From the IMG/VR virus record IMGVR_UViG_3300028888_000091: a stretch of DNA of 30,534 nucleotides; one strand, written 5' to 3'. The number at the start of each line of letters is the position of its first letter. Within the stretch, counting starts at the first letter, position 1. This DNA comes from an uncultured virus (IMG/VR IMGVR_UViG_3300028888_000091). Lineage: Duplodnaviria > Heunggongvirae > Uroviricota > Caudoviricetes. Both the position numbers and the translations under genes were made by a program. Positions 3,883 through 30,534 of this stretch are shown one piece after another. The notes below the pieces were generated by a model. It did no database searches. It was not told the DNA's origin and saw nothing but the letters and a program-made list of their open reading frames with translations.

Positions 3883-4638
3883 TTATCCTTTCCAATCAGA
3901 AAACATCATATCTTTTGAATATTCTTCACACCTAACCACATGATTTCTATCAATATTCAATCTTAAAAATCCTTGTGGCACTTGATTCATGTTCCTTTCA
4001 TGTGCATAAGAATTTTTATAATTCAAAAAATGACCCGAAAAAACATAATGTTTTCTTTTTATTCCTTCTTTTGTTCTTATAGGTCTATTAAAATAATCAA
4101 CATAATGATTATGTCCACACATTGCTAAATCACACACAATATTATTGGTATCACGAATAAATCCTCCCTCTGCTAACTCTAATCTTTGAGAAAATTTAGT
4201 TCCATGTTTTCCATAAATAATAAATTCTTTATTATTAATCAATAATTTATCAAAAAAGTCTGATTTATCATATGGCACATTAAGAATTTCACTAATAACT
4301 TTACTTACATCTAAATTATAATCTTTTTTATTCCTTTTTTCATGATTTCCAGTTGTCATGTAATTGATATATTTTTTATAAGGTTTCAATAAATCTATTA
4401 ATTCACAAAGTTGTTCATCTGCACTTAAATCTTGTTCAAATGCACCTATACGAAGATTCTGCATATCAATTAAATCGCCTAATAAATAGATAACTTTATG
4501 TTTTGTCCGAGTATTCTTAAATACATCTTCCCAATATTGAAAATACTCTAAATCACAGTTAGGCGAACCCAAATGCAAATCTGAAAATGGAAAAATATAT
4601 AATTTATTTCTTTTTAATCTAAATCTATTTTTTACCAT
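3883..4638 (-). CDS. Calcineurin-like metallophosphoesterase
   Basis: SDLHLG, LGDLID, GNHE, KHG, GHNH motifs; start placed at MVKNRF (4638). Confidence 0.88.
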   Translation of the reverse strand: MVKNRFRLKRNKLYIFPFSDLHLGSPNCDLEYFQYWEDVFKNTRTKHKVIYLLGDLIDMQNLRIGAFEQDLSADEQLCELIDLLKPYKKYINYMTTGNHEKRNKKDYNLDVSKVISEILNVPYDKSDFFDKLLINNKEFIIYGKHGTKFSQRLELAEGGFIRDTNNIVCDLAMCGHNHYVDYFNRPIRTKEGIKRKHYVFSGHFLNYKNSYAHERNMNQVPQGFLRLNIDRNHVVRCEEYSKDMMFSDWKG

Positions 4639-20765: not shown

Positions 20766-22265
20766 TCAAAATTCTACTTTGTCATATCTTTCAGAATCTA
20801 ATATTTCAATCAAAACATCATAAGGATTGAATTTTTCACTCATAACCATTTTTAATACATTTTGACTGAAACCGGAAACTAATGTAACTCCTAACTCATT
20901 TTCAGTTAATGGTATAACTCCGGTACGAGAATTTACATTCCAAAAGATTAATTTAGGTAAATCATAACCAACTGCATTATAATATTCTTTAATTTCATCA
21001 AACAAACTTTTAGTTAAAATATTTGTATCTCTTCTCCATCCTCTTTGAGCAGAATCAAATTCCATGTCAGAAATAATAAGAATGTTTTTAATCATTTCTT
21101 CATTTGGAATATCATTTTCAACTGCTACTCCAAGAATAAGTTTGAAAACTGCTAAAATATTTGTATTAGAAATTTCATTATGTTCTCTTGCAGTTAATAG
21201 TTTATCCCTTAATTTCTTATCATTACTTAAATCAACAAATTGTGGTCTGTTAGAAAAAGTAATGTATTTATTTTTGTAAACACCAGTATTATGTTCAGAA
21301 GTGTAAATTGCTAATGCATTAGCAACATCAAGAGCAGTAGTATGTCCACTACTACCCACCGGAATAGTCATACTACCACTTCCATCTGCAACAACAAGAG
21401 TATTACTAATGTTTATGTTTTTGAGATTATCCCATGCTAATTCTAATACATCATCATAATCTCTTAATTTATATTTGGAAACTATATCAACTGGTGTTGC
21501 AACATTCATGTTTAATTTAGAATTGCCTTTTCTAACAGACTCTAAATATTCCATTCTTCTAATCTCATCATGCCTCATAAAAGCATCTTTATATTTGAGA
21601 TTTGCCAAAGATGGAACTTTATTATAATCAATATCACTCCATTTGTTATCACACATTTTAACTTCAACAACATCTAAATATCTACGAAGTTCAGATAACA
21701 TTAAACGATATTTTCTTGAACTTAATCCAAGTAATCTTCTAACTTTTTTGGCTAATGATTTTGTAGTTTTGCTACTTGCATTTTCACTTGGTAACCATTT
21801 ACCAAGTAATGAAATAGGTTTATTCTGTTCCATATTATTAATATCTGATTCTAATTGTTTACTAATAATATTAATAATATGTTTATCAGTTACATCACTA
21901 ATACCAATTAATGAAACTAAATCATCAAATCTACCATATTCACTAATAATATGAAGATTTTTAATAAATAATTCCACATCTAATTCAACTAATCTTTGAT
22001 AACAGATACGAAACAATCTTCTTTCACCTAATCCTTCACGAATATCTCTTGCAAAAAATAACCATTTTAAAGCATAAACATGATTTTCATGAAAAGCAGA
22101 ATCGAATAATTTAATTATTTCATCTTCACTACTATTACGAAGACTACTTACTTTAAAATTCAAATCAACTAATGCAGATTTAGAAGATTTGTATCCTATT
22201 GCACCATTTTCTGTTTTAGTTAAATTATCTTGTTTTTTTAATTCAGTTTCTATTAAATTGAACAT
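20766..22265 (-). CDS. DUF2828 + vWA protein (TROVE/Ro60-like)
   Basis: TENGA, ARDIREGLGERRLF, YGRFDDL, GKWLPSE, KVPS, MIDAS DGSGSM, IISDMEFD, IFWNV, LVSGFS. Confidence 0.85.
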   Translation of the reverse strand: MFNLIETELKKQDNLTKTENGAIGYKSSKSALVDLNFKVSSLRNSSEDEIIKLFDSAFHENHVYALKWLFFARDIREGLGERRLFRICYQRLVELDVELFIKNLHIISEYGRFDDLVSLIGISDVTDKHIINIISKQLESDINNMEQNKPISLLGKWLPSENASSKTTKSLAKKVRRLLGLSSRKYRLMLSELRRYLDVVEVKMCDNKWSDIDYNKVPSLANLKYKDAFMRHDEIRRMEYLESVRKGNSKLNMNVATPVDIVSKYKLRDYDDVLELAWDNLKNINISNTLVVADGSGSMTIPVGSSGHTTALDVANALAIYTSEHNTGVYKNKYITFSNRPQFVDLSNDKKLRDKLLTAREHNEISNTNILAVFKLILGVAVENDIPNEEMIKNILIISDMEFDSAQRGWRRDTNILTKSLFDEIKEYYNAVGYDLPKLIFWNVNSRTGVIPLTENELGVTLVSGFSQNVLKMVMSEKFNPYDVLIEILDSERYDKVEF

Positions 22266-22330
22266 AATAATAAACTTCCATCTTTGAATTTAAACAATAT
22301 TTAATAAATGATAAAAAAATATGAATAATA

Positions 22331-22458
22331 TACTAATGGTTAAAATGATTTAATAATAAAAAGAATACAAATGGTAAAATTCTAATTCATATTTTTCACG
22401 ATATAATAATAAAGGTGGTAGCAAATTCCGAATATCATCTCATTTTAAACCATTAGTA
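22331..22458 (-). ncRNA. Candidate ~128-nt RNA closed by an 18-bp stem with a single bulge
   Basis: TACTAATGGTTAAAATGA (22331-22348) is the reverse complement of TCATTTTAAACCATTAGTA (22440-22458) apart from one extra base. Confidence 0.35.
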
Positions 22459-22538
22459 AATTAAACCCATTTTCCTATACATCTATAAATTTATACATTT
22501 TTCCTTTGGAAAAAATGAAATTGAAATCTCAAAAAATA

Positions 22539-22615
22539 CAAGATGCATTTTATCAAATGATGCAATTTCATATATGTCAAATACAGTATAATATTTTGCA
22601 GTGATGCATCTTTCA
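22539..22615 (-). ncRNA. Y-RNA-like candidate unit 2
   Basis: TGAAAGATGCAT-CACTGCAA...ATGCATCTTG. Confidence 0.55.
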
Positions 22616-22640
22616 TAATTTGAGAACCGGTTAGACATAC

Positions 22641-22715
22641 CAAGATACTTTTTGTAGTTCAACCATATGTTATTCAAATCATTATTTTAGTATATTGCAG
22701 TTAAAGTATCTTTCA
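22641..22715 (-). ncRNA. Y-RNA-like candidate unit 1
   Basis: TGAAAGATACTTT-AACTGCAA...AAAGTATCTTG. Confidence 0.55.
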
Positions 22716-22746
22716 AATCTAAACCTATATATCATACGATAGAGCA

Positions 22747-23484
22747 TTATAAATTTAACTCTTCACCATGAATTTTTTTCCAAATTTCACACACATTTTT
22801 ATCAGTTACTTTATTAACAGATTGGAAATCTGATGGTTCTAATTTACATAAATCATTAAGACAATTAACATCTAATTCATTAGCAATGTTTTTTGCTTTA
22901 ACTTCACCAATACCATTAATTGTTGTTAAGTAAACTGCACATGGCACTTCTTCCAACTCTTCTTTTGGTGAAGGTCTAACAATTCCACCATATTTCTTTG
23001 TATCTGCAATTTTAGAAGAAATGTTAAGCATTTTTTTAAATGCTTCTTCTTCATTTTCAACAAAAATGATAGGAACATACATTGAATAAATCCTATCAAA
23101 TGCACCATTCACTTGTTTATCCATACGAGCAACTAAATTTCTCATTGTTCTGTATTTATATCTAAATGAAGGTACTGTAAAGTAAAGATTTTCCATTGCT
23201 TCTCTAAAATCACCACATACAATTAAATAACTGTATTCATAGTGAATAGATTGATTACTTACCTCATGAAATAATGTTTTATTTTCCATACTGTTAATGA
23301 AATCTTCGCAAGTTTTGAATTCAAAAATTGCTTGTTTCCCATCATTAGTGAAAAATAAATAATCACCATATTTCAAAGGTTCAACTTTCACATTGTATTT
23401 TCCAATATAATAATTATAGGCATTTTTACCTCTCACTTTTTCATGAGAGTCTATAATTATTGTATTAATATACCAATTACTCAT
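22747..23484 (-). CDS. ERCC4/XPF-family structure-specific endonuclease with C-terminal HhH
   Basis: IIIDSHE, YGDY, EFKTCEDFINS (ERKxxxD-like), LTTINGIGEVKAKNI. Confidence 0.85.
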   Translation of the reverse strand: MSNWYINTIIIDSHEKVRGKNAYNYYIGKYNVKVEPLKYGDYLFFTNDGKQAIFEFKTCEDFINSMENKTLFHEVSNQSIHYEYSYLIVCGDFREAMENLYFTVPSFRYKYRTMRNLVARMDKQVNGAFDRIYSMYVPIIFVENEEEAFKKMLNISSKIADTKKYGGIVRPSPKEELEEVPCAVYLTTINGIGEVKAKNIANELDVNCLNDLCKLEPSDFQSVNKVTDKNVCEIWKKIHGEELNL

Positions 23485-23537
23485 TTTTAATAATCACCAA
23501 GTCAATCTTCACTTGTATTAATATATGAATGAAGTAG

Positions 23538-23553
23538 TATATAAAGTTATCGG
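23538..23553 (-). promoter_or_regulatory. Archaeal BRE + TATA promoter (leftward operon)
   Basis: Minus strand CCGATAAC-TTTATATA ~55 bp upstream of the ERCC4 ATG, which has a GGTGA RBS. Confidence 0.7.
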
Positions 23554-23603
23554 TATATGATAATAGTATCATAGTTATGTGTTAATGGATAACCCATCAA
23601 AAA

Positions 23604-23619
23604 TAGAAACATTTATATA
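23604..23619 (+). promoter_or_regulatory. Archaeal BRE + TATA promoter (rightward)
   Basis: TAGAAACA-TTTATATA; GGAGG RBS at 23657-23661. Confidence 0.7.
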
Positions 23620-23671
23620 CTATGAAAACTAATATTATAATAGACAATATATTAATGGAGGAAAAACTAAA

Positions 23672-24259
23672 ATGAATTTAAAATTAGAAATTATATGTAA
23701 AGAATTTAAACATAAGAAACTTATGAACAATAAAATTATTGTGTCTGAAAAAGGTGGTGAATATTATATTATACCATTGACAAAATCTTTTGATTTAGAG
23801 TCTGATGAAGAAGTGTACAAATTAACATTTGAAAATCAATTATTATGGATTAAGTATAGTAATAATGCGAGAGAGATATTGATTAAGGAATTTGATTTTC
23901 AAGACTTTATTGTGATTGAATCAAAAGATATACTTGATATATATGTTAATATTCATACCACTCAATGTTTTAGGAAGAATGTTTGGCAATCAAAAAATAA
24001 TACAAGTGTTAATAAAAAATATCTTGGAAAGTATTTATTGATTTTACCTATTTTTGAGGATATGATTGATATTAAAGAATTTGGTATTGGTATTACTAAT
24101 TATCAGATTCATATGAACACTAATGAGATTTTATTGAAACAAGCGAAGAAAAGGTCTGAACATGGTTGTTACTTGATGCTTACCAATAATGTTAATTTGA
24201 GTCAAGAAGCATTGTTTGTTCCTTTGAAGGATGATGATTTAGGTTTATTTTTACCTTAA
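23672..24259 (+). CDS. Hypothetical protein, divergently transcribed
   Basis: 195-aa ORF with its own promoter and RBS, followed by T-tracts. Confidence 0.75.
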   Translation: MNLKLEIICKEFKHKKLMNNKIIVSEKGGEYYIIPLTKSFDLESDEEVYKLTFENQLLWIKYSNNAREILIKEFDFQDFIVIESKDILDIYVNIHTTQCFRKNVWQSKNNTSVNKKYLGKYLLILPIFEDMIDIKEFGIGITNYQIHMNTNEILLKQAKKRSEHGCYLMLTNNVNLSQEALFVPLKDDDLGLFLP

Positions 24260-24309
24260 TTCTTTTTTTAGTATTTTTTTATTTTTGGGAGTATTGTGGT
24301 TTTTTGTAA

Positions 24310-24720
24310 GGGTATGGTGAGTCACCATGCTTTATCACTATTGTTATTATGAACATTATTCATTTTTTTTAAATATATTATAGAAATGTTGAACAATGTT
24401 CAATTATTTTAATAAAAAATAAACAAACAATCGGAAGGTAATTTCCGACATGGTGAACATGGTGAAAAAACGAATAGGGTTACATTTCAAGTGTAAAATT
24501 TTCTTATATAATGGTATATGTATTAAAAATCACCATGTTCACCATGCCGATAACATACCAAATGAACAAAACTATATTATATTATATATTATTATATTAA
24601 AAAATATATAAATATATAATAATAAGCAAAAATACTGAACAATGTTCAACAAATAACAATTGTTATAACATGGTGAACCAAACATACCTCACCATACCCC
24701 ACCATACCCACCATGCTTTA
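24310..24720. repeat. Nested inverted repeats with multiple CACCAT boxes (origin-like)
   Basis: 24310-24321/24688-24699 (12 bp), 24387-24402/24636-24651 (15/16), 24449-24465/24530-24546 (17 bp perfect). Confidence 0.75.
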
Positions 24721-24859
24721 AATATAACATAAACAATGAAAACACGATAAAAACAAACAAAAACCGAGTCCAAGACCAAAAAATACTGCAAAACAAAAAA
24801 GTCAAGCGAATATGATAGCGAGGGCAAAATGCAACATTCGGTGTGTCTGTTGTAAATAC

Positions 24860-24915
24860 AACAGTTTCTATATGAAACAGTTTCCTTATGAAACAGTTTC
24901 CTTATGAAACAGTTT
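24860..24915. repeat. 16-bp tandem repeat x3.5
   Basis: (TATGAAACAGTTTCCT)n, containing the GAAAC-A-GTTTC palindrome. Confidence 0.9.
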
Positions 24916-25044
24916 ATTAGTATACTAATTTCAGACCTTTAAAATAACATAAAGTTAGATTAAGTTATATTAAATTAGTTTACTATTAAACTAAATATGT
25001 ATACAAATTTTCAAAATGTATACAAATTTTAAGGATTTCAAAAT

Positions 25045-25129
25045 ATCACTTTTTGTGAATTTTATTTCACTTTTTGTGAACAAATTTAAATAATTCACTT
25101 TTTGTGAATTTTATTTCACTTTTTGTGAA
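25045..25129. repeat. Four copies of palindrome TTCAC-TTTTT-GTGAA in two pairs
   Basis: Copies near 25045, 25066, 25094, 25115. Confidence 0.9.
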
Positions 25130-25726
25130 ATTTTTTTCATTTGTGTTAAGGTGTAATCCAAAAGGTTACACCTATTTTTTAGGTAATACTTTTTAGTTAA
25201 TTTGTATTATTTATCATGATTAATCATTACAAATTATTTTTAAGTTTATTTGATTTTTTTTAAATTTTGTTTGATTTGGTTTTTTAAATTTTGTTTGATT
25301 TTTTTGTTAATTTTATTTGATTTTTTTGTCGGTTTTTTCATTTGTTCGTATGTATACGAATTAACTGTTTAATTTTTTGGTATATTTTTTGTTATTTTGT
25401 TTAACATTTGTTAAAAGTTTATGTTATTTTGTCGATATATTTTGAAAATTTTTATTAATTTGTTCATTGAAAGAAATTGTTCTATTTACTATAATCTCAT
25501 ATATATCAAATACTATACAAAATTTCAAAATTCAAATAGATTAAGGAAATTAACAAATCAATTAATAATTTTAATAGTTAGTATCATTAGTTTTAATTTA
25601 ATTAATCGTATCTTTCATAATTCGCATACTTACAATTTAGAAATTTTCAGTAAGTAATACAAATTTAGTACATTAGTAATATTAAGTTTATTTGATTTTT
25701 TTTAAAGTTTATTTCAGTTACTTTAT

Positions 25727-25910
25727 ACACATAGTATATACAAAATATGTACGATATTTGTACGATTTATATACATTCAGAATTTAAACACATAGTATAT
25801 ACAATTTTAATACGATTTATGTACATTCAGAATTTAAACACATAGTATATACAATTTATGTACTTTAAAATATACACATAGTATATACAATTTTAATACG
25901 ATTTATATAC
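25727..25910. repeat. Four copies of ACACATAGTATATACAA within degenerate ~50-bp repeats
   Basis: Copies at 25727, 25788, 25838, 25874. Confidence 0.9.
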
Positions 25911-26245
25911 AATATATTACTATTTTGAAAATTTTAGTATTTTGTCAATTTTTTTAAAATATTTCTAAAAATCTTTTAATTTAAAGTACGATTTTGTTTA
26001 ATTTGTTCAATGAATTTTGAAATTTTGATTTTTAAATGTTCAGTATTTTTTTAATTTTATTGTTCATTTGTTTAGTATTTGTTTAAAAACATTGTACACT
26101 TATTTTTTAGTATTTTTTTGATGTTCAATTTTTTTAGTTTTTTATAATATTTTGTTTAATTTATAGTATGATTTTGTTTAATTTGTTTATTGAATTTTGA
26201 AATTTTTATATTATTGTTCAATTAATGATAATTATATATGGTATG

Positions 26246-26487
26246 AACGACATAATACTTACTATGTAAGTAGAAATTCAAGTGAAATTATTGTAAATGG
26301 TGCGATGTGAAGTAACCTTTCACATCGTAAGGTGTAAGGTTCGGCATTTGCCGGTTTTTTCCGGTTTATGTCGTTAGGTATCCGGTCTATATCATAACCG
26401 GCATATGTGTAAGATTTCCGACATTGGACTGACTGAAAAGGACTAATCAACAATTTAAGTACACATAAATAACATTAAGTAAGTCAG
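26246..26487 (+). ncRNA. Candidate structured RNA upstream of the cassette array
   Basis: GC-enriched island with at least 6 potential stems; TATA-like GATAATTATATA at ~26227-26238. Confidence 0.4.
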
Positions 26488-26604
26488 AAATTTATTTCCT
26501 TATTTTCCTTATTTTTTCCTTATATTGTCGTATGGATTTGTTTTAAGGTTTAAATCCTTTCAAATCCTTTTTTAATTAAATCAAATAAAAATAAGGTGTT
26601 AATT

Positions 26605-26952
26605 ATGGAAAATAAAAGACAAATAGACATTAATTATAAAATGGACAGTATGGTATCTGATATTGTAGAAATGAAAGATATTATAAATAAAATGTACGAT
26701 ATGGAAAAATTCGTATTAAAACTATCTTTTGAAACTTCATATTCAGACAGTCAGTTTATAAGATTTTGTTTAGAAAATACAATAGGAAATACTACTTTTA
26801 ACAATGGATTAATTGTGTTGTATCATAAATTATACGATATTTCCGACATTAAAAACTTTAATGAAAATGAAATTTTAATTAAGTTTTTTGAAATTCAAAA
26901 GGATTTAAAAGATATTAAAATTAAATTTCAGATTTCAGACAAAAGAGAATAA
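26605..26952 (+). CDS. Cassette 1 hypothetical protein
   Basis: Starts MENKRQ after AAGGTG RBS. Confidence 0.75.
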   Translation: MENKRQIDINYKMDSMVSDIVEMKDIINKMYDMEKFVLKLSFETSYSDSQFIRFCLENTIGNTTFNNGLIVLYHKLYDISDIKNFNENEILIKFFEIQKDLKDIKIKFQISDKRE

Positions 26953-27055
26953 TTATTCTCTTTCTTTCTTTTTATTTTGTTCTTATGGATTTGTTAAGGT
27001 TTAAATCCTTTCAAATCCTTTAATTATGGAAAAAATTAAAAATAAGGTGTTAATT

Positions 27056-27301
27056 ATGAATATAACTAATCGTACATTATTAGACATTGAAATGATTTGT
27101 AATAATTTAATTAAAGTATCCGAACATAATAATTATTTTTTAATCGGATTAGATACCGACAAAATCGGATTAAATTTAACTTATAATGATATTTTGTACA
27201 TAATGAAAAAATTTTATGATAAAATATTATTTTGTTCAAATTTAAAAGGTATCAAATCAATAAAATTACAAAATCATTTAATTATTTTAAACAAATGGTA
27301 A
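27056..27301 (+). CDS. Cassette 2 hypothetical protein
   Basis: Starts MNITNR after AAGGTG RBS. Confidence 0.7.
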   Translation: MNITNRTLLDIEMICNNLIKVSEHNNYFLIGLDTDKIGLNLTYNDILYIMKKFYDKILFCSNLKGIKSIKLQNHLIILNKW

Positions 27302-27406
27302 TTATTACCATTTTATTTTATTTTATTTTATCGTATGGATTTGTTTTAAGGTTTAAATCCTTTCAAATCCTTTATTTTAAAAAATAGTTAAAAATAAGGT
27401 GTAATT

Positions 27407-27778
27407 ATGGAAAATAAACAAAATTATAATAAAGAAAGTGAATTTATAGAAATTTCAGTTAGTAATGATATTTTATTTATGTGTTCAGATTTATATAATT
27501 TTGAACAAATTAAAAAACAATTAACTAAAATTTTTATAAAAATCTTTAAATTTAATGATTTTGTAACAAATGAACAATTTATAAATAAATATTTTGAACA
27601 TTCTTTAAATATGATTTCTGAAAATTTAAACGATAATACTATTAAATCAAATAAAGATTTAAAATATTATATTCAAAATGAAATTTATTTAACAATTTCA
27701 AATAATGAATTTTTATTTAATAAATTTTTCAATAATCAATATTTAAATGTTCAAAATTTCTTATTTGTTAATGAATAA
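27407..27778 (+). CDS. Cassette 3 hypothetical protein
   Basis: MENKQN... Confidence 0.75.
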   Translation: MENKQNYNKESEFIEISVSNDILFMCSDLYNFEQIKKQLTKIFIKIFKFNDFVTNEQFINKYFEHSLNMISENLNDNTIKSNKDLKYYIQNEIYLTISNNEFLFNKFFNNQYLNVQNFLFVNE

Positions 27779-27896
27779 TTTTTAATTATTCATTATTTCT
27801 TTTATTTTATCGTATGGATTTGTTAAAATTAGTTATTTACTAATTAAAAGGTTTAAATCCTTTCAAATCCTTTAAATTAAAAATAAGGTGTAAATT

Positions 27897-28355
27897 ATGG
27901 AAAATAAATTATTTAAAAATGTAGAAAATGAAAATTATTCAAAAGTAAAATTGAACATTTTAAATAAATTAGTAAAAGAAAATAATTATCTTTTAGATAT
28001 TTGTAATAAAATTGAATTATATTTTATTATAAGTAATAAAGATTATATGAAAAAAGATTTTGAAAATTTTATTTATCCACATACTTTTAATAATAAAAAT
28101 CTTTCATATATGGAAAATATACATCATTTGAATGAAAATTCATTTAAATTTTATTTAGAAATAAAAAGATGTAAATTTTCAGATTATAAAGGATTTAAAC
28201 AAATTCTTTTAAAAGAAAATGAATATTTAAAAGATATTATTAAATTTTATTCAGTTTTTATACATAAGAACAATAAAAAATTATTAAAAGAAATAAAAGA
28301 TTTAAATTTAAATGAACAAATTAATAATATTAATATGTTTTATACTAAATTATAA
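27897..28355 (+). CDS. Cassette 4 hypothetical protein
   Basis: MENKLF... Confidence 0.75.
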   Translation: MENKLFKNVENENYSKVKLNILNKLVKENNYLLDICNKIELYFIISNKDYMKKDFENFIYPHTFNNKNLSYMENIHHLNENSFKFYLEIKRCKFSDYKGFKQILLKENEYLKDIIKFYSVFIHKNNKKLLKEIKDLNLNEQINNINMFYTKL

Positions 28356-28457
28356 ATCTTTCTTTCTTTCTTTCTTTTTATCGTATGGATTTGTTTTTAA
28401 GGTTTAAATCCTTTCAAATCCTTTAATTATGGAAAAAATTAAAAATAAGGTGTTTAT

Positions 28458-28736
28458 ATGTCTTTAAAAAAAGTTAATGAAAATTTAAAAATATTAAATG
28501 TTTTTAATGGATTAATTGAACAAAATATTATTTCTGAAAATCATATTTCTAAAAAATGGAACGATTTAAACAAATTAGAAATTATTTTAAATGAATTTTC
28601 AGATAATAATATAATGTTATTTTGGTTTTATTACCACAATGAAAAATTTAATAATTGTTTCATTATGTTGAAAAATTTAGTATATAAAAAATATTCAGAA
28701 ATTAGAAAATATTATTTATTAAATAATAACTTTTAA
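28458..28736 (+). CDS. Cassette 5 hypothetical protein
   Basis: MSLKKV... after RBS. Confidence 0.7.
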   Translation: MSLKKVNENLKILNVFNGLIEQNIISENHISKKWNDLNKLEIILNEFSDNNIMLFWFYYHNEKFNNCFIMLKNLVYKKYSEIRKYYLLNNNF

Positions 28737-28827
28737 TTTCTTTTTATTTCTTTCTTTTTATCGTATGGATTTGTTTTTAAGGTTTAAATCCTTTCAAATC
28801 CTTTAAATTAAAAATAAGGTGTTTTTA

Positions 28828-29070
28828 ATGAAATCAAAAAACTATTATTTAACTAATGATTTTTTAAGGAAAAATAAAATTTATACAAATGATATTTTAT
28901 TAAGGTTACAATATAGTAATTTTAGGATACCTAAAAATAAATTTATGGAAAATAAAAAGACATTTAAAAATAACCAAAAGGTTATTTTTTCTGATGGAAC
29001 ATTTATAAAAGGAAATATATTTAATATTGTACTTAATAAAAGGATTAAAAAATATTATAATATGTTTTAA
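28828..29070 (+). CDS. Cassette 6 hypothetical protein
   Basis: Starts MKSKNY after RBS. Confidence 0.7.
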   Translation: MKSKNYYLTNDFLRKNKIYTNDILLRLQYSNFRIPKNKFMENKKTFKNNQKVIFSDGTFIKGNIFNIVLNKRIKKYYNMF

Positions 29071-29157
29071 TCCTTTCTTTCTTTCTTTTTATCGTATGGA
29101 TTTGTTTTAAGGTTTAAATCCTTTCAAATCCTAAAATAAATTAAATAAGGTGTAATT

Positions 29158-29409
29158 ATGGAAAATAAATTTAATACAAATATTAAAAAAAGTAATAAAA
29201 TAGTATTTGAAAAATTAGAAAATGAACAATACAATATTAAATTTTATAATGATAATAAAATTGTTAATGATTTTTTATTTATTTTGAACATTAAAACAAT
29301 TTTAAAATTAATTAATAAAAAAAATATTGTATTATTATCTGAAAATGTTTTATTATCTAAAATATTTTTAACTGATTTAATTAATAAAAAAGGATTAATT
29401 TATTTATAA
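29158..29409 (+). CDS. Cassette 7 hypothetical protein
   Basis: MENKFN... Confidence 0.7.
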   Translation: MENKFNTNIKKSNKIVFEKLENEQYNIKFYNDNKIVNDFLFILNIKTILKLINKKNIVLLSENVLLSKIFLTDLINKKGLIYL

Positions 29410-29507
29410 ATCCTTTTTTCTTTTTTATTTTGTTCTTATGGATTTGTTAAGGTTTAAATCCTTTCAAATCCTTTTTTAAATAAATCAAATAAAAATAAGG
29501 TGTAATT

Positions 29508-29891
29508 ATGGAAAATAAATTAATTTTAAATGTTAAAATTGAAAATTCAGAAAATGGAAAAATTGAAAGTATTACTAAAATAGAAAAATTATTATATTTT
29601 ATTATCATTAAATCTTTAAAAAATGTTCCTATCGAATATTTAAAAAATAATGATGTTAAATTAAATAAATATGGATTTTCTATTAGTTATAATATTTATA
29701 ATGGACAATTACAATTTAATAATAATGATAATTATTATTTAAATAATATTAGACATATTTTATTAAAATATAATATTAATAATGTAATTGAATATATTTT
29801 AATTGAATTAGAAAAATATATTATAAATTATTATGATTATGTAAAAAATAATGAACAATTAATAAATGAATTATCTTTAATTTATTTATAA
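29508..29891 (+). CDS. Cassette 8 hypothetical protein
   Basis: MENKLI... Confidence 0.75.
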   Translation: MENKLILNVKIENSENGKIESITKIEKLLYFIIIKSLKNVPIEYLKNNDVKLNKYGFSISYNIYNGQLQFNNNDNYYLNNIRHILLKYNINNVIEYILIELEKYIINYYDYVKNNEQLINELSLIYL

Positions 29892-29997
29892 TATTTATCT
29901 TTCTTTTTTTCTTTTTTCTTTTTTATTTTGTTCTTATGGATTTGTTTTAAGGTTTAAATCCTTTCAAATCCTTTAAATTAAAAATAAGGTGTTTTTA

Positions 29998-30240
29998 ATG
30001 AAATTCAATAAATTAAATCAAAATTGTTTTTATTTAGAAATCGGAAATAAAGTAATACTTATAAGTTATGAAAGTATTATCGGATTAATTGAAAATAATA
30101 TTTTATATATTTCTGAACATTATTTAAATTTTAGTAATACTACAAATAAACATATAAGTTTATTTAAACAAAATTTAAATTATGAAAATGAAATTATAAT
30201 AAATAATGAACAATTATATAAATTAGTTAATGTTATTTAA
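29998..30240 (+). CDS. Cassette 9 hypothetical protein
   Basis: Starts MKFNKL; contains LISYESIIG...FSNTTNKHI. Confidence 0.75.
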   Translation: MKFNKLNQNCFYLEIGNKVILISYESIIGLIENNILYISEHYLNFSNTTNKHISLFKQNLNYENEIIINNEQLYKLVNVI

Positions 30241-30288
30241 TTAATTTATTATTTTTTTATATTTTTTTCAAATAAAAAGGTGTGTAAA

Positions 30289-30363
30289 ATGAACATTAAA
30301 ATATTTTCTGAAATGTTTTTAATAATATTTATGATAGAAATAATATTATGTTTTATTTTTTAA
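30289..30363 (+). CDS. Hydrophobic mini-protein (24 aa), second gene of cassette 9
   Basis: AAGGTG RBS; MNIKIFSEMFLIIFMIEIILCFIF; no core repeat upstream. Confidence 0.45.
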   Translation: MNIKIFSEMFLIIFMIEIILCFIF

Positions 30364-30467
30364 AATATTTTTTCTTTCTTTCTTTTTATCGTATGGATTT
30401 GTATTTTAAAGGTTTAAATCCTTTCAAATCCTTTTTTAATTAAATCAAATAAAAATAAGGTGTAATT

Positions 30468-30534
30468 ATGAAAAAAAATATTTATAGTAAGGAAATTTTA
30501 AATAAAAAAAGTTTTTTTGATAAAATAAATTATA
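30468..30534 (+). CDS. Cassette 10 protein (partial)
   Basis: MKKNIYSKE... runs off the window end. Confidence 0.65.
   Translation, partial: MKKNIYSKEILNKKSFFDKINY

Follow-up and report, generated by a model that had tools for sequence, protein, structure and literature searches.

Introduction

What are ten near-identical, hairpin-forming elements doing in front of ten apparently unrelated small genes? This question is raised by the right-hand end of a 30,534-nt stretch of DNA (hereafter the window) from an uncultured tailed virus, IMG/VR record IMGVR_UViG_3300028888_000091. Each element is predicted to fold into two stacked helices around a TTTAAAT loop and stands directly upstream of one open reading frame (ORF). 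An earlier reading, made from the letters alone (the sequence-only reading), had offered three explanations: a tRNA mimic that lets host RNase P and RNase Z cut one long transcript into single-gene messengers, an attC-like site of an integron-like cassette system in an archaeal virus, and, as a third option, a TATA-like promoter inside a palindrome. In this study we describe the anatomy of the repeated module, its conservation pattern, the covariation of its middle arm and the way in which relatives differ in their cassettes, all of which were observed directly, and we use them to weigh these explanations. The repeat has, in our judgement, a somewhat better than even chance of being an archaeal counterpart of the promoter-early stem-loop (PeSL) cassettes of T4-type phages, that is, a self-contained expression module which would at the same time serve as a recombination seam. 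The promoter and terminator activities of the module are predicted from its sequence.

Results

A repeated intergenic module precedes ten small genes

A search for the pattern GGATTTG-N(1-12)-AAGGTTTAAATCCTT-N(0-3)-CAAATCC returned nine copies on the plus strand of the window against 0.00 expected from 100 dinucleotide shuffles, and a tenth copy (element 4 in Table 1) was recovered with a looser regular expression. All ten copies are co-oriented and follow the consensus GGATTTG-linker-(A)AAGG-TTTAAAT-CCTT(T)-CAAATCC, with spacings of 453, 350, 479, 571, 380, 331, 342, 498 and 457 bp from the first to the last. The pattern search found none on the minus strand and none in the rest of the 50,782-bp virus contig to which the window belongs. 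The sequence-only reading had listed ten near-identical elements 331-571 bp apart, and its starts and spacings agree with ours. Its stem geometry, a 7-bp helix stacked on a 4-5-bp helix with a 7-nt loop, was borne out as well; insertions occur only on the 5' strand. Its linker length of 2-7 nt holds for nine of the ten copies and fails for the fourth, whose linker measures 25 nt and contains a 7-bp hairpin of its own.

What is repeated extends beyond the hairpin alone and comprises a whole intergenic module of ~90-120 bp. Its parts always come in the same order: a stop codon, a T/C-rich (oligo-T) tract, the trinucleotide TAT, the hairpin, an A/T spacer, the ribosome site ATAAGGTGT and an ATG. 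The spacer between element and AAGGTG is pure A/T and 14-25 nt long, and AAGGTG is separated from the ATG by 5-6 nt. Such an AAGGTG-ATG start follows all ten elements of the window and all 18 elements that we found at metagenome loci.

The genes behind the elements (lengths in Table 1) had been described as unrelated and AT-rich, which is what we found. No pair of cassette proteins matches at phmmer E<=1, hence we regard the ORFs as unrelated to each other, and the GC content of the array is 13-15%. Among the nine complete cassette proteins none matched Pfam and one matched PHROG weakly: ORF 9 resembles PHROG 5643 (9.8e-5) and has one 63%-identical protein in a large protein collection.

Promoter-like and terminator-like signals in and before the hairpin

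An oligo-T tract is a terminator signal in archaea. Within 45 nt upstream of the element we found a T run of at least 4 in 28/28 copies, among them all ten of the window, and a T run of at least 5 in 25/28. Downstream of the hairpin a T run of at least 5 occurs in just 5/28 copies, which rules out a terminator of the bacterial intrinsic type. A sigma-70-like promoter was rejected by eye: there is no -35/-10 pair at constant spacing, and the linker varies between the only candidate boxes.

The pattern TWTATATA/TTTATATA is described as a methanogen-specific TATA pattern in PMC2699501. Taken together with the next base, the hairpin loop (TTTAAATC) agrees with TWTATATA at six of eight positions on the gene strand and at three of eight on the other strand (own count). 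The purine-rich (A)AAGG in front of TTTAAAT resembles the flank of the canonical TTTATATA sites of this virus, which are described below. In 28/28 copies the ATG follows the TTTAAAT box at a distance of 45-56 nt and AAGGTG follows it at 32-44 nt, which would suit a transcription start ~30 nt past the first T of the box. Of the three explanations offered before, a TATA-like promoter inside a palindrome fits best.

The fold is kept and the core is frozen

A covariance model was built from 11 element variants, and 28 copies were aligned to it, ten from the window and 18 from metagenome relatives, giving 19 distinct rows; the alignment being fitted to the model, pair counts lean towards it. The nested fold is adopted by 11/11 variants. 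Five short forms fold as RNA into a nested two-helix hairpin (z -2.0 to -3.6). In the long form a linker insert of 25-26 nt makes its own arm (7-8 bp with a 3-6-nt loop), and six distinct long forms share one common three-way junction as RNA (-12 to -13.3 kcal/mol, z -2.95 to -3.61). DNA parameters gave the same folds on both strands.

Covariation, to which the sequence-only reading had looked for support of the fold, was found in the optional middle arm and is absent from the outer and inner helices, which are invariant. In the middle arm, where 100% of cells are paired, four of the seven pairs show compensatory double changes and there is one U.G. In slid controls, with the partners moved by 1-3 columns, none rose above one pair changed on both sides. 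The outer helix has its seven pairs in 19/19 distinct rows without any variation; the inner helix has four invariant pairs and a fifth pair in 11/19 rows, the other eight rows having 4 bp. Altogether 34 positions (TAT, outer helix, inner helix, loop and the next T) are invariant in the 28 copies, although orthologous cassette proteins are only 35-59% identical. A decayed copy (L132, 27.7 bits) keeps TTTAAAT and also keeps its inner helix, by way of a G:C to A:T double change.

In our reading the hairpin fold matters, because long inserts seem to be accepted at a single junction of the 5' strand, and there only when they are self-paired. The two main helices appear to be read by sequence in addition, because they are frozen where the orthologous proteins have diverged this far. 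A core frozen beside such proteins, in a hairpin that must fold, implies a sequence- and structure-specific reader, a factor that would recognize the folded form as extruded DNA or as read-through RNA.

Could the reader be an ordinary dimeric regulator that binds GGATTTG/CAAATCC as a duplex site, the hairpin being incidental and TTTAAAT not being a promoter? Both half-sites are invariant, and the canonical promoters of the virus also carry conserved palindromes beside their TATA box, which speaks for such an operator. However, the half-sites are 18, 20, 21, 23, 41 or 42 nt apart, which is too variable for a rigid dimer on B-DNA and makes a dimeric duplex-DNA operator unlikely. The covariation of the middle arm would stay unexplained, and no other promoter-like, TATA-like box was seen at a workable distance before each cassette gene. 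We consider a pure operator very unlikely.

The shape of the element invites another explanation, namely that long transcripts are punctuated by minihelices which RNase P and RNase Z, or another nuclease, cut into single-gene mRNAs. As in tRNA minihelices, mitochondrial tRNA punctuation and mascRNA, a 7-bp helix is coaxially stacked on a 5-bp helix with a 7-nt loop and a continuous 3' strand without an unpaired base; insertions fall only at the 5'-strand junction, and a long insertion must be a hairpin. The U.G wobble of the middle arm fits the sense strand only. The loop TTTAAAT keeps four of the five T-loop consensus positions, T54, T55, R57 and A58, with C56 replaced. The element model also matches the true tRNA of a relative (L007; 24.9 bits, where the Rfam tRNA model scores 68.4 bits) and a decayed one in the genome studied here (31.4 bits), and a promoter-like box of the canonical type lies ~300 nt before element 1. 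Yet RNase P and RNase Z read shape, while here the tRNA-like helices are invariant in sequence and only the arm that is not tRNA-like covaries. The Rfam tRNA model (RF00005) has no match at E<=10 in window 23400-30534 (7.1 kb) or in 27760-27920 (161 nt), ARAGORN finds 0 tRNA, and the element lacks a D arm, an anticodon arm and CCA, its 3' flank being T followed by A/T. Unlike in the known systems, terminator-like T tracts lie upstream: those of at least 5 T before 25/28 elements would stop archaeal RNA polymerase first, which argues against one long transcript. Fair as its geometry is, the tRNA mimic of the sequence-only reading was not supported, and we regard RNA punctuation as unlikely. The bulge-helix-bulge splicing motif was ruled out by eye; the bulge measures 2-7 nt instead of 3, and there is no second bulge.

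The decayed tRNA just mentioned is 71 nt long and lies outside the window, between tail-region genes (contig 3937-4007, minus strand). Its acceptor stem and T arm (T-loop TTCAAAT) are perfect, while a D arm and an anticodon arm cannot be recognised; with the Rfam tRNA model it scores 23.7 bits (threshold 29), and ARAGORN reports nothing. The intact tRNA of L007 (5888-5961) has the same T arm.

Cassettes differ between relatives and the differences fall at the modules

Arrays with the exact 23-mer core of the element were found on five distinct metagenome contigs (six loci), with 4, 4, 7, 2 and 2 copies. The same 23-mer gave 0 loci in viral_contigs and 0 in genome_contigs. Hence a copy of a host repeat (a CRISPR repeat or a REP-like sequence) is ruled out at the exact-match level for the species genomes of genome_contigs, from which the 23-mer is absent. 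Looser patterns gave at least 119 and at least 120 loci in viral_contigs; these were single and scattered, with no arrays among the matches listed, and we take them as chance. None of the relatives found through the portal protein (L003-L007) has the outer inverted repeat or a strong match to the model; being fragments that are 10-59% complete, they carry little weight. Searches for relatives by the ERCC4 nuclease, by the DUF7659 protein after the array and by portal alignment in genome_contigs found nothing, and 2 kb of the array had no blastn match among 50,697 phage records.

One of the metagenome contigs, L131 (11 kb), overlaps the last 127 bases of the window with one mismatch. After cassette 10 it carries two ORFs without an element, an eleventh element and then more than 9 kb of small plus-strand genes, which are preceded by canonical TTTATATA promoter-like sites. 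The contig continues past the array, therefore the array is internal and not terminal. Another contig, L129, begins with a non-coding leader followed by seven cassettes, a start that resembles that of the window. Its cassettes 1, 2, 4 and 7 correspond by homology to cassettes 1, 2, 9 and 7 of the window, so that only four of the nine complete window cassettes have a homologue there and the other five are without a counterpart. The order has changed too, the homologue of ORF 9 preceding that of ORF 7. A difference in order and content between related genomes, one of the outcomes that the sequence-only reading had considered, is thus what we observed, with two lineages compared. The homology spans whole ORFs and ends at the modules. 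Across the copies the types of left flank, linker and right spacer are mixed in mosaic combinations, and the long form makes up 13/18 copies in the relatives and 1/10 in the window.

The spacers of units 2 and 5 (27019-27043 and 28422-28446) hold ATTATGGAAAAAA, in which a relic of the start shared by the cassettes (ATTATGGAAAATAAA) is joined to a second ribosome site; in unit 2 the ATG of the relic (27026) is in frame with the ORF. This relic is a scar of recombination within modules. Differing cassette content and order, the mosaic of flanks, linkers and spacers, and this relic of an ORF start support the view that the modules are recombination seams, at which cassettes would be gained, lost and re-ordered.

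It might be possible that the seams are dedicated sites, folded single strands comparable to attC or to REP/IS200-like hairpins, on which a recombinase moves single-gene cassettes. Like an integron, the array consists of co-oriented, unrelated small ORFs bounded by near-identical, bulged and imperfect palindromes whose centre varies; relatives differ in cassette content and order, flanks and linkers of different types are combined as in a mosaic, and the outer inverted repeat is invariant, as expected of a site read by a protein. Integron cassettes are mostly promoterless and have attC at their 3' end, whereas here the element lies 5' of the gene, probably with a promoter, and every copy is tied to a downstream ribosome site and start codon at fixed distance, so that it acts more like an expression signal for the gene behind it than like the 3' border of a cassette. 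By eye the alignment contains no core pair of the GTTRRRY/RYYYAAC type. The sequence-only reading had seen no recombinase in the window, and none came to light beyond it. A six-frame search of the 50.8-kb contig, which covers ~53% of the genome, gave no match to Phage_integrase, Resolvase or Y1_Tnp at E<=1, whereas controls of the PF00589 search were positive in 14/14 genomes. A Pfam scan of 73 contig ORFs (26, 16 and 31) and of the 23 L131 ORFs listed at 60 aa or more found no recombinase family, and no integrase came up in the ~62 kb covered altogether. Moreover, homologous recombination between 100%-identical repeats would be enough for gain and loss. With no tyrosine, serine or Y1 recombinase in about half of the genome and no attC core, the attC-like explanation was not supported, and of the explanations weighed here we give a dedicated recombination site the least credence.

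Genome setting and neighbouring features

Window positions 1-30490 correspond to contig positions 20293-50782, and the contig makes up ~53% of the genome according to CheckV. A protein identical to that of cassette ORF 9 is recorded on a 106,172-bp contig. Because of this record and the estimated completeness, the full virus genome probably measures ~100 kb. The contig belongs to a tailed virus and encodes a portal, a large terminase, an SU10-type major capsid protein and a prohead protease; further genes are an HNH nuclease, a ParB-like, a thymidylate-synthase-like, a metallophosphatase, a DUF2828/DUF7788 (TROVE/Ro-like) and an ERCC4 nuclease gene. Nearly all of the named structural and enzyme genes are on the minus strand; the array is on the plus strand, past a 2.3-kb non-coding, repeat-rich stretch.

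The portal protein has 41% identity to that of Caudoviricetes sp. vir080 (88% coverage, E 1e-85), the sole substantial match among 50,697 phage records. The recorded host of vir080 is Methanobacteriales. This nearest named relative is temperate, has an integrase and measures 53.2 kb, much less than the ~100 kb inferred here. Owing to the portal similarity and a promoter grammar of the methanogen type, rather than to a host record, we consider the host to be archaeal and probably a member of the Methanobacteriales. Both the portal match and the TTTATATA TATA boxes support the guess of an archaeal virus made from the letters alone.

Those TATA boxes belong to a second repeated control unit, which consists of an A-rich upstream flank, TTTATATA and a conserved downstream palindrome of GTAACTAAT-type half-sites. 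Nine such sites were found in L131 and one at window position 23613; a further TTTATATA-type site lies on the minus strand before the ERCC4 gene. The unit occupies 23605-23645 (plus strand) and ~23520-23560 (minus strand) in the window and occurs at L131 positions 1216, 1872, 3814, 4366, 5232, 6977, 9234 and 10480. It precedes the ORF at 23672, the ERCC4 gene and many genes downstream of the array, and is probably the main promoter-plus-operator class of the virus.

The 2.3-kb non-coding stretch between the divergent gene arms (24260-26530) contains at least six families of tandem or direct repeats, for example a 16-mer x3.5 at 24860-24915, a 21-mer x4.5 at 25046-25146, a 22-mer x3.8 at 25245-25329 and a 50-mer x2.6 at 25722-25864. 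Its appearance is that of a replication origin or control region rich in iterons. The GC-richer patch at its right-hand side (Table 1) might serve as a structured leader or encode a small RNA; L129 has a leader that is likewise non-coding but by eye unlike it.

The DUF2828/DUF7788 (TROVE/Ro-like) gene occupies 20766-22265 on the minus strand, and its counterpart is labelled 'RNA-binding protein' in Enterococcus phages. Upstream of it lies a 480-bp gap without a long ORF (22266-22746). Genes for Ro-type proteins usually lie close to one for a partner Y-like RNA. Rfam at gathering threshold detected no Y-like RNA near the gene and gave 0 matches in the whole window.

The element-free junctions at 30241-30363 and at L131 579-634 share another conserved T-rich spacer with a ribosome site; the former leads into the 24-aa hydrophobic mini-ORF.

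Table 1. Positions of the repeated elements, cassette genes and adjoining features in the window
Feature	Position	Strand	Remarks
Element 1, short form, linker TTTT	26534..26567	+	TTTAAAT at 26549; 56.1 bits, covariance model
Element 2, short form, linker TT	26987..27018	+	Pattern search and covariance model
Element 3, short form, linker TTTT	27337..27370	+	Pattern search and covariance model
Element 4, long form, three-way junction, 7-bp middle arm AATTAGT/ACTAATT	27816..27870	+	-12 kcal/mol, z -3.08; 89.5 bits
Element 5, short form, linker TTTTT	28387..28421	+	Pattern search and covariance model
Element 6, short form, linker TTTTT	28767..28801	+	Pattern search and covariance model
Element 7, short form, linker TTTT	29098..29131	+	Pattern search and covariance model
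Element 8, short form, linker TT	29440..29471	+	Pattern search and covariance model
Element 9, short form, linker TTTT	29938..29971	+	Pattern search and covariance model
Element 10, short form, linker TATTTTA, 5-bp inner helix	30395..30431	+	Pattern search, fold and covariance model
Cassette ORF 1, 115 aa	26605..26952	+	L129 homologue, 35% identity, phmmer 4.5e-21; no Pfam or PHROG match
Cassette ORF 2, 81 aa	27056..27301	+	L129 homologue, 36%, phmmer 1.7e-08; alternative in-frame ATG 27026
Cassette ORF 3, 123 aa, orphan	27407..27778	+	No Pfam, PHROG or mutual phmmer match
Cassette ORF 4, 152 aa, orphan	27897..28355	+	No Pfam, PHROG or mutual phmmer match
Cassette ORF 5, 92 aa, orphan	28458..28736	+	No Pfam, PHROG or mutual phmmer match
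Cassette ORF 6, 80 aa, orphan	28828..29070	+	No Pfam, PHROG or mutual phmmer match
Cassette ORF 7, 83 aa	29158..29409	+	Homologue is seventh cassette of L129, 56% over 32 aa, phmmer 8.2e-20
Cassette ORF 8, 127 aa, orphan	29508..29891	+	No Pfam, PHROG or mutual phmmer match
Cassette ORF 9, 80 aa	29998..30240	+	Homologue is fourth cassette of L129, 59%, phmmer 3.8e-26
Hydrophobic mini-ORF, 24 aa, own AAGGTG, no element before it	30289..30363	+	Read from sequence; compared with L131 junction
Cassette ORF 10, cut by window end	30468..30534	+	Continues on L131
T/C-rich tract with T6 run, before element 1	26489..26533	+	Likely archaeal oligo-T terminator of preceding unit
Canonical-type promoter-like box, ATTATATA then TGGTATGAAC, pointing into array, ~300 nt before element 1	26226..26245	+	By eye
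GC-richer, hairpin-rich leader between box and element 1	26285..26450	+	-45.7 kcal/mol, z -2.43; no Rfam match

Discussion

The anatomy of the module suggests how it might work. The oligo-T tract would end transcription of the preceding small gene, and the TATA-like box within the hairpin, (A)AAGG as the transcription factor B recognition element (BRE) followed by TTTAAAT(C), would restart it ~30 nt downstream. Counted from the first T of the box, this start would leave a leader of ~14-25 nt, a short A/T sequence that carries the strong ribosome site ATAAGGTGT and then the ATG. As such, each small accessory gene would be a transcription unit of its own, served by one promoter class that is distinct from the TTTATATA-plus-operator promoters. 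The near-identical modules might double as seams for the gain, loss and re-ordering of cassettes by recombination. The nested hairpin, finally, would be read by a sequence-specific factor, a regulator or an insulator acting on extruded DNA or on read-through RNA, which could set the timing of expression or block read-through.

Several points weigh against this terminator-promoter reading. The TATA-like box departs from the very uniform canonical box of the virus at two of eight positions. A basal promoter leaves unexplained why TAT, the distal GGATTTG and the 12 nt that follow the box (CCTTTCAAATCC) are invariant, and it gives no reason why the 25-nt insertion should pair with itself. T7 runs are also present at two element-free junctions in apparent operons (30241-30288; L131 579-634), hence T tracts may terminate inefficiently here. 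With transcription starting where predicted, no more than 1-14 nt would separate the 5' end from the ribosome site. Template-switch correction of quasi-palindromes is a mutational source of paired changes without selection, and the compensatory changes of the middle arm could partly be its product rather than that of selection.

A combination of two functions is conceivable as well. As duplex DNA the element would be a BRE/TATA promoter; as read-through RNA it would mimic an acceptor stem and T arm and be cut by RNase P/Z or captured by a factor, possibly the TROVE/Ro-like protein, so that T-loop and TATA box would be one and the same sequence. If true, cassettes would be insulated from their neighbours, small tRNA-like RNAs would be released, and the factor would recognise the invariant outer helix. 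We think this joint claim decidedly unlikely.

To our knowledge methanogen viruses are barely characterised, and we know of nothing on the timing or insulation of their gene expression. For the Methanobacteriales there are few genetic tools. If the terminator-promoter reading is true, the module would offer them a compact, portable expression unit of ~100 bp with terminator, promoter and ribosome site. A frozen 34-nt core and a required fold, where basal factors need none, point to a sequence- and structure-specific reader of viral or host origin. From the terminator-promoter reading, if true, it would also follow that a cassette architecture of promoter plus stem-loop arose in viruses of both domains; in T4-type phages such an architecture drives the turnover of orphan genes, probably ones for host takeover or anti-defence.

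The closest counterparts are the PeSLs of T4-type phages, which according to PMC2839356 consist of a stop codon within A/T-rich sequence, a promoter of the host type whose boxes a stem-loop may overlap, a Shine-Dalgarno sequence and a start codon. These modules mediate gene shuffling (Arbiol et al. 2010, PMC2839356; Comeau et al. 2014, PMC4122927). Both systems place repeated intergenic modules of the same layout right before small orphan genes in a plastic region, and in both the differences between related viruses fall at the modules. They differ in several respects. The host here is probably archaeal, and BRE/TATA is expected instead of a sigma-70 promoter; termination is expected from the oligo-T tract before the hairpin and not from the hairpin; and the hairpin is nested, with two helices and an optional third arm. 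All copies here share one 34-nt core, whereas the stem-loops of PeSLs vary in position and sequence. Promoter, terminator and mini-circle activity of PeSLs are reported from experiments, while the module presented here has been read from its letters.

A second counterpart is found among archaeal viruses. In the haloarchaeal myovirus HGTV-1 most small ORFs are preceded by a TATA-like box and an inverted repeat that have been likened to PeSLs (Sencilo et al. 2013, as cited in PMC3950731). In the 128-143.8 kb region of its genome (NC_021328) we found such a module in 19 of 24 long intergenic regions; the modules measure 110-190 bp, have TATA-like boxes and a 6-8-bp hairpin before ORFs, and are located in one genome arm. 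Its hairpin lies between two TATA-like boxes, is G+C-rich and varies, whereas ours encloses one box; its host is haloarchaeal, and a side-by-side comparison by eye, made with no alignment, revealed no similarity of motif sequence. What the two share is an archaeal tailed virus with a TATA-like box and an inverted repeat before small hypothetical ORFs, here at 10/10 elements. Overall we lean, if only slightly, towards a regulatory and shuffling cassette of the PeSL type in a variant belonging to a methanogen virus, set apart by an unusual, conserved nested hairpin around its TATA-like box.

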